Under the pieces are notes generated by a model. It was given only the letters and a program-made list of their open reading frames with translations. It did not search any database and had not been told where the DNA came from. Source: Gemmatimonadota bacterium (lineage in GTDB: Bacteria; Gemmatimonadota; Gemmatimonadetes; Gemmatimonadales; GWC2-71-9). Taken from it: 64,000 nt of DNA. Positions 35,633 to 53,179 of this stretch are shown here, piece by piece. Both the position numbers and the translations under genes were made by a program. Where the stretch lies: contig JAZKBR010000004.1 of assembly GCA_040388535.1 (NCBI GenBank), positions 463,699 to 527,698 on the forward strand. Reading direction: 5' to 3'. Position 1 is the stretch's first letter, and every line of letters begins with the position of its first letter.

Positions 35633-36721
35633 TCAGAGCCGCGCGCCGCTCTCTTGATCGAACCAGTGACAGCCATCAGGCACAACCGAGCATGCCATCG
35701 GCGAATCGACAGCGGGTGACACGCCGGCGTCGACGCGGAACGTGATCGGAACACCACCAGCGCGAATGGTGATCAGCGATTCATAGCCGAGGGGCTCAAC
35801 TGCTTCGACGATGCCCTGAAAACCTGGAACCCCCGGGACCGGCCTGATTGCTTCCGGCCGGATGCCGAGCACCACGGCACCTTCGGGTCGACGCGCCGGG
35901 AGGTGCGCTTCGGGAATCGCGATCGTCAGCGCCCCATCAGGGGTCTCGAACTTCACCGACTCACCGCCGACCAGCCGACCTGCGATCTGGTTCATCGGCG
36001 GCGAGCCGAGAAATCCGGCAACAAAGAGGTTCGCCGGACGATCATAGATATCGAGCGGACTCCCCACCTGCTGCACCCGCCCCGCGTGCATTACCACGAT
36101 CCGGTCACCGAGCGTCATCGCCTCGACCTGGTCGTGCGTCACGTAGAGCGTGGTCGTGCCGAGGCGACGACGGAGTGCTGCCAACTCGCGCCGCATCTGC
36201 ACCCGGAGCTTGGCATCGAGGTTCGAGAGCGGTTCATCGAAGAGAAAGACCGCAGGCTGCCGGACGATGGCACGGCCGAGGGCCACGCGCTGACGCTGAC
36301 CGCCGGAGAGTTGCTTGGGCTTTCGCGCGAGAAGTTCCTCGATTCCCAGCAGTGCAGCCACCTCGCCAACACGCTGGTTGATCGCAGCAGCCGACTGCTT
36401 TCGCAGTGTCAGCGCAAACGCCAGATTGTCGCGCACCGTCATGTGCGGGTAGAGCGCGTAGTTCTGGAAGACCATCGCGATGTCGCGGTCGCGCGCGGGC
36501 ACGTCGTTGACAATCCGGTCGCCAATGCGGATCGTCCCGGCCGTCGCCGATTCGAGGCCTGCCACCATCCGGAGCGTCGTGGTCTTGCCGCAGCCGGAGG
36601 GGCCGACCAGGACGAGAAACTCGCCTTCGGCAATCTCGAGCGAGACCTCGTGCACCGCGACGTGAACGGCGCCGCGATCCTGGTATATCTTCTGGATGCC
36701 TTCGAGCGTTACCCTGGCCAT
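35633..36721 (-). CDS. Carbohydrate ABC transporter ATP-binding protein (MalK/UgpC/MsiK-like)
   Basis: Walker A GPSGCGKTT, signature LSGGQRQRVALGRA, Walker B FLFDEPLSNLD, and a C-terminal MalK-type regulatory/TOBE-like domain. Confidence 0.9.
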   Translation of the reverse strand: MARVTLEGIQKIYQDRGAVHVAVHEVSLEIAEGEFLVLVGPSGCGKTTTLRMVAGLESATAGTIRIGDRIVNDVPARDRDIAMVFQNYALYPHMTVRDNLAFALTLRKQSAAAINQRVGEVAALLGIEELLARKPKQLSGGQRQRVALGRAIVRQPAVFLFDEPLSNLDAKLRVQMRRELAALRRRLGTTTLYVTHDQVEAMTLGDRIVVMHAGRVQQVGSPLDIYDRPANLFVAGFLGSPPMNQIAGRLVGGESVKFETPDGALTIAIPEAHLPARRPEGAVVLGIRPEAIRPVPGVPGFQGIVEAVEPLGYESLITIRAGGVPITFRVDAGVSPAVDSPMACSVVPDGCHWFDQESGARL

Positions 36722-36735
36722 CGAGATGCCCTTCC

Positions 36736-38088
36736 TTGTCTGAGACTATCCGCTTTCCCGCCGGTTTCCTCTGGGGTGCCGCCACCTCGGCCTATCAGGT
36801 CGAAGGCTCGCCACTCGCCGATGGCGCTGGCCCCAGCAACTGGCACCGCTTCGTGCACGAGCCCGGCCGGATCGACAACGGCGATAGCGGTGACATTGCC
36901 TGCGATCACTACCACCGCTGGGCCGACGATGTGGTACTGATGCGCGGGCTCGGACTCAACGCCTACCGCTTCAGCGTCTCCTGGAGCCGGATTCTCCCCA
37001 GCGGGCGCGGGTCGATCAACAAACCCGGACTCGACTTCTATGACCGTCTGGTCGATCGCCTGCTTCAGTATGGTATCGCACCGTCAGTCACCCTCTACCA
37101 CTGGGATCTTCCCGCTGCGCTCGACGACCTCGGCGGCTGGCTCAACCGCGATGTGGCCGGCTGGTTTGCCGACTACGCCGGAGTTGTCGTGCGCGCGCTC
37201 GGCGATCGAGTGCCGATGTGGACGACCCTGAACGAGCCGTGGGTCGTCTCCGATGCCGGATACCTGCACGGTGTTCATGCCCCCGGCCACCGCAGCACCG
37301 CCGGGACCCCGCTGGTCAGTCACAACCTGCTGCGGGCGCACGGCGCCGGGATGCAGGCGATTCGTGCCGAAGGCGGCAAGTCGGCCGGACTGGTCGTAAA
37401 CCTTGAACCGAAGTACCCCGCCACGGACCGCGCTGCTGATGTCGCCGCCACTCGGCGCGCCGACGCCTATATGAATCGCCAGTTTCTCGACCCGGTATTC
37501 CTCGGAAGTTACCCCGAAGAACTTGCCGAGATTTTTGGCGTCGACTGGCCCCGCTTTCCGGACGAGGACTTCGCACTCATCCAGCAACCGCTCGACTTTC
37601 TTGGCGTCAACTACTACACCAGGAACGTGGTCTGCGATGATCCGTCGGCGCTCCCCATTCGCGCCGGCCGCGTCCGCCAGAATGCAGCACTGCACACGAC
37701 ACTCGACTGGGAAGTCTACCCGGCGGCACTCACCGATGTACTGCTCTGGATCACGGAGCGCTATCCATCACTACCATTGTATATCACCGAGAACGGTGCG
37801 GCCTTCCTGGATACCGACCCCGCCGACGCCGAACTCGTGCATGATCCGCTGCGCGTCGACTATTTCCGCTCTCATCTGATGGCCGTGCACGATGCGATCT
37901 ACCAGGGCGCCGATGTTCGCGGCTACTTCGCCTGGTCACTGCTCGACAACTTCGAGTGGAGCGCCGGCTTCGCCAAGACCTTCGGCCTCTTCCGCGTGGA
38001 CAAGCCGAGCCAGCGCCGAATTCCCAAAGCCAGTTCTCGCTTCTACACGGATGTGATTCGTTCTCACGGCGAAGCGCTCGGTCGGTAG
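36736..38088 (+). CDS. GH1 beta-glucosidase
   Basis: FPAGFLWGAATSAYQVEG, acid/base TLNEPW, nucleophile YITENGAA. TTG start only 14 nt from the divergent ATPase start. Confidence 0.9.
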   Translation: MSETIRFPAGFLWGAATSAYQVEGSPLADGAGPSNWHRFVHEPGRIDNGDSGDIACDHYHRWADDVVLMRGLGLNAYRFSVSWSRILPSGRGSINKPGLDFYDRLVDRLLQYGIAPSVTLYHWDLPAALDDLGGWLNRDVAGWFADYAGVVVRALGDRVPMWTTLNEPWVVSDAGYLHGVHAPGHRSTAGTPLVSHNLLRAHGAGMQAIRAEGGKSAGLVVNLEPKYPATDRAADVAATRRADAYMNRQFLDPVFLGSYPEELAEIFGVDWPRFPDEDFALIQQPLDFLGVNYYTRNVVCDDPSALPIRAGRVRQNAALHTTLDWEVYPAALTDVLLWITERYPSLPLYITENGAAFLDTDPADAELVHDPLRVDYFRSHLMAVHDAIYQGADVRGYFAWSLLDNFEWSAGFAKTFGLFRVDKPSQRRIPKASSRFYTDVIRSHGEALGR

Positions 38089-52024: not shown

Positions 52025-53056
52025 CTATTGCGGAATCGGGGGCCCGGCCGGTGCAGCCCGGGCACCGCAAGACCGGCGCACGACGAGGGTCGTCGTGGCG
52101 GTTTCACGGATGAGAGCGCGGCGGCCCGGGTGACGAAGCTCCGAGACCAGTGCCGCTGTAGCGCGCTCCCCGAGCGCGCTGATGTCAACGTGTACCGAAC
52201 TGAGCGCCGGCTCGACATAGCGCGCCATGGGGATGTCGTCGAACCCCCCGATGGCGATGTCATCCGGGACCCGGAGTCCGGCCTCACGCAGGGCGAAGAG
52301 CGCCCCGATGGCCATGCCGTCGTTGGCCGCGAAGATCGCGGTCGGGCGTGGTTGCAGTCGCAGTAGTGTCTGCGCTCCGGCAGCGCCGGCGGCTTCGCTG
52401 AAGTCGCCGGGCACGATGAGTTCATCGAGCACCGGGAGTCCGCTGTCGGCAAGTGCCGCGCGATAGCCACGCAGCCGCTCGGTCGCGTCGAAGTTCCCCG
52501 CTTCTCCGGTCAGGATCGCAATGCGCTGGTGGCCGAGGGACGCGAGGTGACGGACCATGCTGTAGGCCCCCTCGTAGTTCTCGACGTTGATGGCATTGTG
52601 GGGTGTTTCGGAGGGCGGGCAGTTCAGCAGGACGACAGGGAAACCGGCGGGGAGCGCTCGCCGGGAAAGCTCACCGGTAAACTCGGGCGACATCAGCACC
52701 AGGCCGTCGACCCGGCCGCGCATCGCGCGAAGCGCTGCCTCCAGGGTCGGGCCACTATGGCGCGCGCTGGAGACAATGCATTGGTACCCCTCGAGCTGGG
52801 CCGTCTGGTCGATGCCGCGCATCACTTCCGAGAAGAACTCGCCGTAGAGGTCCGGGAGCAGGACGCCGATGGTATGGGTCCGGTTGGTGATCAGTGAACG
52901 GGCGCCACCGTGCGGGGTGTAATGCAGCCTGGCCGCCGCGGCCCTGACCCGGTCGCGGGTCTCGGGGGCCACCAGATCGTCGCGATTGAGGGCGCGCGAA
53001 GCAGTGGCGATCGAGACCCCGGCATCCCGGGCGACTTCCCTGATGGTGACGCTCAA
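52025..53056 (-). CDS. LacI-family transcriptional regulator
   Basis: HTH VTIREVARDAGVSIATASRALN, followed by a periplasmic-binding-protein-like sugar-binding core. TTG start at 53056 inferred. The longer ORF upstream is Arg/Pro/Gly-rich. Confidence 0.85.
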   Translation of the reverse strand: MSVTIREVARDAGVSIATASRALNRDDLVAPETRDRVRAAAARLHYTPHGGARSLITNRTHTIGVLLPDLYGEFFSEVMRGIDQTAQLEGYQCIVSSARHSGPTLEAALRAMRGRVDGLVLMSPEFTGELSRRALPAGFPVVLLNCPPSETPHNAINVENYEGAYSMVRHLASLGHQRIAILTGEAGNFDATERLRGYRAALADSGLPVLDELIVPGDFSEAAGAAGAQTLLRLQPRPTAIFAANDGMAIGALFALREAGLRVPDDIAIGGFDDIPMARYVEPALSSVHVDISALGERATAALVSELRHPGRRALIRETATTTLVVRRSCGARAAPAGPPIPQ

Positions 53057-53141
53057 GAGGACTCTGCCGGGCTCGTGGGAGGTGAGCGGACCGGGCACCC
53101 GACCGGATCGCCCGCCGGGGTGCCGGCGAGCTGATTGAGCG

Positions 53142-53179
53142 AATGCAAACGTTTTCGGTGATATGTAAACGTTTGCATT
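53142..53179. promoter_or_regulatory. Two tandem LacI-type operators inside a perfect 13-bp inverted repeat
   Basis: AATGCAAACGTTT - N12 - AAACGTTTGCATT. Each arm contains a TGNAAACGTTTNCA-like palindrome (TGCAAACGTTTTCG and TGTAAACGTTTGCA), with centres about 20 bp apart. It lies in an AT-richer patch ~90 nt upstream of the lacI-family start. Confidence 0.55.

Follow-up and report, generated by a model that had tools for sequence, protein, structure and literature searches.

A locus of ten genes at ~35633-53180 in a 64-kb stretch of DNA from a soil-type Gemmatimonadota bacterium (hereafter the window; 65% GC, part of a metagenome-assembled genome, MAG) is very likely a beta-1,2-glucan (sophoro-oligosaccharide, Sopn) utilisation locus. 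It encodes a LacI-family repressor, a TonB-dependent receptor (TBDR), a lipoprotein of glycoside hydrolase (GH) family 144, the solute-binding protein (SBP), two permeases and ATPase of an ATP-binding cassette (ABC) importer, a GH94 phosphorylase-type protein, a GH1 beta-glucosidase and a secreted multidomain protein of 1041 residues, which we refer to as X1041. The substrate is suggested by three of these proteins, GH144, SBP and GH94, since the nearest characterised relatives of each act on beta-1,2-glucan. The same substrate had been put forward in an earlier, sequence-only reading of the stretch, and it now receives support from homology to the endo-glucanase XcSGL, to the binding protein Lin1841 and to the GH94 domain of the synthase Cgs. 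The enzymes look active, as judged from the catalytic Asp and GGQYTH motif of the GH94 protein and the NEP and ENG motifs of the GH1 protein. beta-1,2-Glucans occur as cyclic glucans of rhizobia, agrobacteria, Brucella and Xanthomonas and as osmoregulated periplasmic glucans of many Proteobacteria; they act as factors in symbiosis and virulence and are a component of bacterial necromass. To our knowledge, little has been learnt about the organisms that consume them.

Genes were assigned by combining open reading frame (ORF) calls with Pfam and NCBIfam searches, which confirmed all ten at the places proposed earlier (Table 1). The minus strand carries, in this order, LacI, TBDR, GH144, SBP, permease A, permease B, X1041 and GH94. 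The content and order given by the sequence-only reading held for these genes and for the ATPase, but the GH1 gene, which it had listed right after the minus-strand string, lies on the plus strand. Its 3' end converges with that of the GH94 gene (25-nt overlap, 38064-38088), while its start and that of the ATPase gene are divergent, with 14 nt between them (36721/36736). Each of the five junctions GH144/SBP, SBP/permease A, permease A/permease B, permease B/X1041 and X1041/GH94 is a 4-nt start/stop overlap (GTGA or ATGA), so that the six genes from GH144 to GH94 look like one translationally coupled operon; this coupling is unusually uniform across the six genes (38064-47554). The limits of the locus follow from its flanks, both of which carry unrelated genes: those for multihaem cytochromes at one end and, at the other, those for an alpha/beta hydrolase and a Ser/Thr kinase. 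The upper limit of 53179 given previously had to be revised, as there is no start codon there: the LacI frame begins downstream and two palindromes occupy the last part of the interval. Scans of 35300-53500 for promoters and terminators returned nothing above the shuffled background, a result that is uninformative either way for this phylum.

Table 1. Features of the putative beta-1,2-glucan utilisation locus. Positions are those of the window; for the parts of X1041, residue numbers are given.
Feature	Position	Strand	Matches and remarks
MalK/UgpC/MsiK-type ABC ATPase	35633..36721	-	ABC_tran, OB_MalK, TOBE_2; Walker A and LSGGQ
GH1 beta-glucosidase, predicted cytoplasmic	36736..38088	+	PF00232, 1e-153
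GH94 phosphorylase-type protein, 1134 aa	38064..41468	-	GH94_b-supersand (two stretches) and Glyco_hydro_94
X1041, secreted multidomain protein, uncharacterised family	41465..44590	-	Pfam: F5_F8_type_C and weak six-hairpin match
X1041, signal peptide	residues 1-17		
X1041, beta-sandwich, CBM11-like	residues 20-173		AlphaFold2 model
X1041, beta-sandwich, CBM32/discoidin	residues 185-301		AlphaFold2 model
X1041, beta-supersandwich	residues 337-547		AlphaFold2 model
X1041, (alpha/alpha)6 barrel	residues 558-936		AlphaFold2 model
X1041, C-terminal beta-sandwich	residues 937-1040		AlphaFold2 model
ABC permease B, UgpE/MalG-like	44587..45408	-	BPD_transp_1; NCBIfam UgpE/GlcU-like; 4-nt overlaps at both ends
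ABC permease A, UgpA/MalF-like	45405..46298	-	BPD_transp_1; UgpA-like NCBIfam; 4-nt overlap with SBP stop
Solute-binding lipoprotein, Lin1841 / Xac-'MalE' type	46295..47554	-	SBP_bac_1; lipobox AASGC; GTG start overlaps GH144 stop
GH144 endo-beta-1,2-glucanase homologue, lipoprotein	47551..48987	-	PF10091; lipobox VLAGC; start 48987
TonB-dependent outer-membrane receptor, Oar/CarboxypepD_reg type	49051..51990	-	CarboxypepD_reg, Plug, OMP_b-brl_4
LacI-family repressor	52025..53056	-	PF00356 HTH and Peripla_BP_3/1
Two LacI-type palindromic operator candidates	53144..53177		TGCAAACGTTTTCG at 53144-53157 and TGTAAACGTTTGCA at 53164-53177

The GH144 assignment of the sequence-only reading proved sound. 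The protein matched PF10091 at 3.3e-81 (272 bits for a Pfam cut-off of 27), aligned with XcSGL (XCC2207, PDB 8XUL) at E 2e-168 with 55% identity over 440 columns, and matched CpSGL (5GZH) at 3.5e-43. XcSGL is a beta-1,2-glucan-specific endo-glucanase in which E239 is the general acid and E239, F286 and Y367 define the clan; its activity was undetectable on carboxymethyl-cellulose, barley glucan, lichenan, laminarin, curdlan, pustulan and other substrates, and its structure has been solved with Sop7 bound (PMC12102758). The clan-defining residues are kept in the Gemmatimonadota protein as E220, F265 and Y346, and I433 corresponds to I453 of XcSGL. The crystal chain of 8XUL carries the substitution E239Q, which served to fix the numbering offset in this mapping. 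Another member of the family, BDI_3064, is an exo-sophorohydrolase, and the mode of action can therefore not be read from family membership. The adjoining TBDR has a signal peptide and a C-terminus ending in YTF, and it is syntenic with the TBDR found beside GH144 in Xanthomonas, which is XCC2208 in X. campestris pv. campestris (Xcc).

The importer points to the same class of substrates. The best PDB match of the SBP was 3UOR, the X. citri 'MalE', the specificity of which is listed as unknown (1.5e-120), followed by Lin1841 (5YSB; 1e-67, 232 bits), which is its nearest relative of known specificity and the sophoro-oligosaccharide (Sop3-5) binder of Listeria. The next relatives of known specificity reached 3.5e-30 and at most 109 bits. 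3UOR itself probably binds sophoro-oligosaccharides and not maltose, and would be the SBP of the Xanthomonas version of the locus, a proposal based on synteny with the Xanthomonas GH144 locus and on the relation to Lin1841. Permease A shares 60-93% identity with its counterparts in related loci. The ATPase, described earlier as MsiK-like, indeed showed MalK-type domains and passed the NCBIfam model of the UgpC subfamily (462 bits, cut-off 432); its position is kept across Gemmatimonadota loci.

The GH94 protein matched PF06165 at 1e-133 and PF17167 at 1.6e-116. Its residues 6-262 align with residues 1543-1798 of Cgs and its residues 293-1090 with residues 2009-2794 (E 1.6e-250), which bears out its earlier description as NdvB-type: the Cgs/NdvB-type module is present with its N-terminal domain. 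The Cgs GH94 domain scored 838 bits with the single sequence and 1175 bits with a family profile built from 14 members and scored against PDB relatives. The same profile gave 379 bits for cellobiose phosphorylase, 371 for chitobiose phosphorylase, 250 for cellobionic acid phosphorylase, 110 for cellodextrin phosphorylase and 106 for laminaribiose phosphorylase, and the protein thus falls outside the cellobiose/cellodextrin clade. The catalytic Asp (D802 in GDWNDG, equivalent to D2528 of Cgs) and the GGQYTH motif at 953 are invariant in the 14 family members. In Cgs, the GH94 domain attacks beta-1,2 chains at their non-reducing end by phosphorolysis and so trims the growing protein-bound chain, for length control during synthesis. 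Both proteins share a C-terminal module made of an extra N-terminal beta-sandwich, a supersandwich and the catalytic barrel with its Asp and GGQYTH, but the protein of the window differs from Cgs in being free-standing, soluble, encoded in a catabolic operon and devoid of GT84 or GH189 domains.

The more specific tie that had been drawn to the 1,2-beta-oligoglucan phosphorylases (SOGPs) of Listeria and Lachnoclostridium did not survive. LpSOGP (5H3Z) scored 30 bits with the family profile and was not retrieved with the single sequence even when hits up to E 10 were admitted, and neither SOGP_N (PF21958) nor SOGP_2nd (PF21250) matched the window GH94 in Pfam. A true SOGP-type protein from Methylosinus matched these two models at 3e-68 and 9e-39; in BLASTP against the window GH94, it aligned with part of the catalytic domain only, at 24% identity (E 2e-8). 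Searches with the Methylosinus protein in the window and in 84 loci retrieved only weak matches to Cgs-type genes. By these comparisons the GH94 protein is outside the SOGP clade (EC 2.4.1.333; Lin1839, 5H3Z) and, SOGPs being its most distant GH94 relatives, it is the Cgs domain that connects the protein with beta-1,2-glucan.

Upstream of the operon, the most likely start of the LacI frame is TTG 53056, with GTG 53098 as an alternative; the former yields the N-terminus MSVTIREVA, which is typical for the family. Two palindromes lie ~90-120 nt upstream of TTG 53056, spaced by 20 bp centre to centre. Their core AAACGTTT occurs twice in the 64 kb, both times here, against 0.18 occurrences expected, and no further copy with up to 3 mismatches was found in the window. 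The motif TGTAAACGTTTACA is present at the equivalent spot upstream of LacI in ~10 related Gemmatimonadales loci and in one Eiseniibacteriota locus (L056). At the other end, the GH1 protein exceeded the cut-off of TIGR03356 in NCBIfam (575 bits for 478.5) and carries E167 in NEP as acid/base and E352 in ENG as nucleophile. Its position and orientation are kept in related Gemmatimonadota loci.

X1041 is the member of the locus for which PDB sequence searches returned no characterised relative of the catalytic part. They assigned a CBM32-type carbohydrate-binding module at 187-305 and a weak CBM11-like module at 19-129 (endoglucanase H), and the C-terminal 700 residues had no catalytic-family match in Pfam, NCBIfam or the PDB with single sequence or profile. 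NCBIfam holds no equivalog for GH144, GH94 or X1041. An AlphaFold2 model based on a 37-sequence alignment (predicted local distance difference test, pLDDT, 87.6; predicted template modelling score, pTM, 0.85) resolved the domains listed in Table 1. Foldseek searches with this model returned dextran dextrinase, GH94 phosphorylases, Cgs, GH116, GH15 glucodextranase, GH65 and GH63 at 9-15% identity, with E-values from 6e-17 to 1e-11 and target TM-scores of at most 0.60; no family stood out. The label 'GH15-like' given to X1041 by the sequence-only reading can thus be retained for the fold but not for family membership, as PF00723 did not match and TIGR01577 reached 27 bits for a cut-off of 820.7. 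X1041 shares with the GH15, GH65, GH94 and GH116 enzymes the supersandwich plus (alpha/alpha)6 layout and fold, as well as a WxRD-type motif (WIRDG), but differs from them by its two extra N-terminal binding modules, its secretion and its 9-15% identity.

Profile-profile alignment (hhalign) of X1041 with the GH94 family gave 80% probability over 513 columns. In this alignment the catalytic Asp of GH94 is not conserved in X1041, which has an inserted invariant loop, SISHEGYSAKPMHSYWDDF, instead, and the GGQYTH region aligns with the invariant YTPYE (E867), in which the His is replaced. The invariant residues of X1041 are mostly located in the (alpha/alpha)6 barrel and include many carboxylates (WIRDG 621, EHDSHGE 672, SHEGY 739, YWDDF 751, GDFD 814 and YTPYE 863). 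The family is large, with 1117 representative clusters (50% identity) at E<=1e-30, and every homologue examined has a hydrophobic, signal-like N-terminus, so X1041 should act outside the cytoplasm, between the TBDR and the ABC importer. We give slightly less than an even chance to the proposal that X1041 founds a glycoside hydrolase family that is as yet unclassified and specialised in beta-1,2-glucans, which would be the hydrolase counterpart of GH94 as GH15 is to GH65. On this proposal E867 would act as the general base and a carboxylate of the SHEGY...YWDD loop as the acid, an assignment drawn from a low-identity alignment, and the protein would perform a step of which GH144 is incapable. 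Candidate roles before import may be the opening or exo-trimming of cyclic, alpha-1,6-closed or substituted beta-1,2-glucans.

X1041 could also be a non-catalytic protein that binds glucan or captures it at the surface, akin to the SusD/SusE partners of TonB receptors. The two N-terminal modules of carbohydrate-binding type, the lack of a sequence match to any characterised catalytic domain and the loss of the GH94 Asp at the aligned position would fit such a role. We nevertheless consider it unlikely, as the invariant carboxylate motifs of the barrel form the conservation pattern of an active site, the gene follows the permeases, away from the TBDR, and members of the family occur where there is no TBDR at all.

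The distribution of the locus was explored by scanning for X1041 with one genome per species. At least 595 loci were found, of which the best 80 were kept and searched by tblastn with all ten proteins of the locus. The loci closest to the window were from Gemmatimonadales, in many of which the complete order recurs: LacI, TBDR, GH144, SBP, permease A, permease B, X1041, GH94, GH1 on the opposite strand, and ATPase. Variant loci devoid of GH94 retain X1041, GH1 and the ATPase. The core GH144-SBP-permease-permease-X1041 was found in Eisenbacteria, Krumholzibacteriia and Holophagales, the core genes are present in rearranged order in Ignavibacteriae and Zhuqueibacter MAGs, a Thermoanaerobaculia locus has TBDR-SBP-permeases-X1041 without GH144, and a Croceibacterium plasmid carries GH3-TBDR-GH144-X1041. 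Among the loci with enough flanking DNA to be counted, GH144 lies at most 5 kb upstream of X1041 in 29 of 47 and the SBP and permeases in 30-31 of 47, while downstream GH94 was found in 24 and GH1 in 28 of 44. With its full order in many Gemmatimonadales MAGs and its core in other phyla, the gene arrangement is not due to chance. High GC content and the TBDR might suggest that the window stems from Xanthomonas; this was rejected, as X1041 shows 100% identity to an NCBI protein of a Gemmatimonadota MAG and the closest loci are those of Gemmatimonadales.

Many of the loci examined combine X1041 with GH144 or with a beta-1,2-type GH94. In Competibacteraceae MAGs (L050, L053, L068 and L077), X1041 has a clear signal peptide and is paired with a Cgs-type GH94; the two stand apart amid housekeeping genes, in a neighbourhood without TBDR, GH144 or ABC importer. 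This pair may serve to turn over endogenous glucan in these glycogen-accumulating organisms. Plasmid pMSC49c of Methylosinus sp. C49 (L083:2726-12538) encodes a more distant, 957-aa relative of X1041 that lacks the CBM11-like domain and is divergent beside the true SOGP-type GH94; a GH15 protein and an SbmA/BacA-like ABC permease-ATPase are encoded two genes away. This cluster may represent another type of beta-1,2-glucan module. With GH144, Cgs-type GH94 and SOGP-type GH94, the X1041 family thus has three different beta-1,2-glucan enzymes among its neighbours. For the X1041 relative on a Methylocystis plasmid, the context was uninformative and consisted of mobile elements.

Among known systems, the locus of XcSGL (XCC2207) in Xanthomonas, examined in X. 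sacchari, has the same order as the window from LacI to X1041 (LacI-TBDR-GH144-SBP-permease-permease-X1041), with overall identities of 33-61% (GH144 56%, SBP 47%, permeases 55-61%, LacI 48%, X1041 ~40%). Its GH144 is annotated as 'glucoamylase family', and it is this type of locus that holds the characterised XcSGL next to XCC2208 in Xcc. Unlike the locus in the window, it continues immediately downstream with edd, pgl, glk and zwf and carries neither GH94 nor GH1 there. In X. sacchari R1 (NZ_CP010410) the SBP is located at L081:8394-9656 and the X1041 orthologue at L081:12001-14865, where it is unannotated and split into three pieces in different frames, reflecting either a pseudogene or sequencing errors. 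The 508-kb record that carries edd, pgl, glk and zwf is labelled a plasmid and may be chromosomal. We did not find the Xanthomonas locus described as a unit in the literature searched; the neighbours of XCC2207 appear only in a 2007 TBDR survey. In that organism, the association of a TBDR with an inner-membrane transporter is the usual design of the carbohydrate utilisation loci containing a TBDR (CUT loci; Blanvillain et al. 2007), and the TBDR, carbohydrate-degrading enzymes, inner-membrane transporter and sugar regulator that define a CUT locus are all contiguous in the window.

Described clusters for beta-1,2-glucan include that of Lin1839 in Listeria, those with GH144 genes in Bacteroidota and one in Ignavibacterium album. 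The model published for the I. album cluster (IALB_1177-1187) comprises a TonB transporter, GH144 enzymes, a Sopn-binding ABC importer and a cytoplasmic, free-standing Cgs-type GH94 (Kobayashi et al. 2022, PMC8861115). Combining TonB and ABC transport in a hybrid design is therefore not new, being both usual in Xanthomonas CUT loci and proposed for I. album. The I. album cluster differs in having a second GH144 gene as well as the GH35 beta-1,2-glucosyltransferase IaSGT, whereas the window locus has one GH144, a GH1, no GH35, and X1041 within the operon. Whether a beta-glucosidase belongs to the I. album cluster is reported inconsistently: the introduction of the same paper lists a putative GH3 beta-glucosidase and the discussion states that there is no beta-glucosidase homologue (PMC8861115). 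In an uncultured member of the Ignavibacteriae (L079), X1041 adjoins GH144. The Listeria innocua cluster (Lin1839 SOGP, Lin1840 GH3, Lin1841-1843 ABC) shares the logic of a Sop3-5 importer, a cytoplasmic phosphorylase and a beta-glucosidase, but this Gram-positive organism has neither TBDR nor endo-glucanase, its phosphorylase belongs to the SOGP clade and its beta-glucosidase is a GH3 rather than a GH1. Our literature search returned nothing on GH144 loci in Gemmatimonadota. On homology and gene order, the locus extends a known type of system to this phylum and shares its core with the Xanthomonas locus.

Taken as a route, the locus would work as follows. The GH144 lipoprotein would cut linear or opened beta-1,2-glucan endolytically, and the TBDR would carry glucan or oligosaccharide across the outer membrane. 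Secreted X1041 would process this material further in the periplasm or envelope, most likely as an inverting glycoside hydrolase of a new family, with its two binding modules holding the glucan. The Lin1841-like SBP, the two permeases and the MsiK-like ATPase would then import short sophoro-oligosaccharides, from which the cytoplasmic Cgs-type GH94 would remove the non-reducing-end glucose stepwise as alpha-glucose-1-phosphate, leaving sophorose or short oligomers to be hydrolysed to glucose by GH1. LacI, bound to the two palindromes, probably represses the LacI-to-GH94 transcript until an oligosaccharide inducer accumulates. Signal or lipoprotein sequences are present on the TBDR, GH144, SBP and X1041 and absent from GH94 and GH1, a distribution of exported and non-exported proteins that fits this route. 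We infer the substrate, the inducer, the location of the GH144 protein and the reaction of X1041 from the sequence, which in this phylum does not tell a surface from a periplasmic lipoprotein.

Several observations weigh against a beta-1,2-glucan utilisation locus. The literature yielded no activity, binding or induction data for the proteins of the locus or for Gemmatimonadota homologues, and the literature searched held no characterised free-standing Cgs-type GH94; IALB_1177, the I. album homologue of the window GH94, is only 'expected' to act on Sopn (PMC8861115). GH94 is missing from many related, otherwise identical loci, which suggests that phosphorolysis is a dispensable, energy-saving option. 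X1041 carries CBM11-like and CBM32 modules, and characterised members of these module families bind other glycans. The operator candidates are confined to the LacI promoter region and none was found for the GH1/ATPase pair. The best PDB matches of GH1 are ordinary, generic beta-glucosidases, so this protein is uninformative on linkage. A GH1 beta-glucosidase preferring beta-1,2 linkages, SGR_2426, has been described (PMC12369401).

The same chemistry could serve another role, namely the recycling or remodelling of the cell's own periplasmic or cyclic beta-1,2-glucans, for example after osmotic shifts. The Competibacteraceae pair of X1041 and GH94, which stands alone without TBDR, GH144 or ABC importer, speaks for such a role, as does the derivation of the GH94 protein from the same module as the length-control domain of the synthase. 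However, the operon is headed by a TBDR that is conserved in Gemmatimonadota, Xanthomonas, Croceibacterium and Holophagales and points to the import of external material, the large ORFs scanned in the window included no cgs/ndvB or opgH-like gene, and a LacI-repressed catabolic layout is typical for nutrient loci. These features make self-recycling improbable here. A target other than beta-1,2-glucan, such as cellodextrin, mixed-linkage glucan, laminarin or sophoroside-type glycosides, to which the generic GH1, the weak CBM11-like match (endoglucanase H) and the rank of cellobiose and chitobiose phosphorylases as next-best GH94 relatives after Cgs might point, is very improbable given the GH94 score gap (1175 vs 379 bits), the Sopn binder as sole close relative of known specificity of the SBP, the absence of any cellulase, laminarinase or lichenase family from the locus in Pfam, and the restriction of the characterised endo-acting GH144s, XcSGL included, to beta-1,2-glucan among the glucans tested (PMC12102758).

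Elsewhere in the window, two large multihaem c-type cytochromes are encoded at 30384-35616 (+), one of 763 aa with c7/c3 motifs and one of 512 aa, MtrC/MtrF-like with paired CXXCH; between them lies a 496-aa ORF without Pfam match, and the three may form an extracellular electron-transfer module. At 5648-10058 (-), molybdopterin oxidoreductase and 4Fe-4S dicluster domains are fused in a 1016-aa protein whose gene adjoins that of an NrfD-type membrane subunit; by domain content this is the layout of alternative complex III or of a polysulfide-reductase-like enzyme. Three Ser/Thr protein kinases are encoded at 14206-17966 (+) and 55582-58281 (+), two of them in tandem and one, of 899 aa, with tetratricopeptide (TPR) repeats.

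For the enzymology of these glucans, the free-standing Cgs-type GH94 is a candidate phosphorylase, possibly useful for beta-1,2-glucan synthesis, and the characterisation of X1041 could establish a new glycoside hydrolase family and supply a step still missing from the degradation of beta-1,2-glucan. For the organism, the beta-1,2-glucan utilisation locus described here suggests that Gemmatimonadota, and apparently several other poorly cultured phyla too, possess a complete and regulated system for the uptake and breakdown of beta-1,2-glucan.

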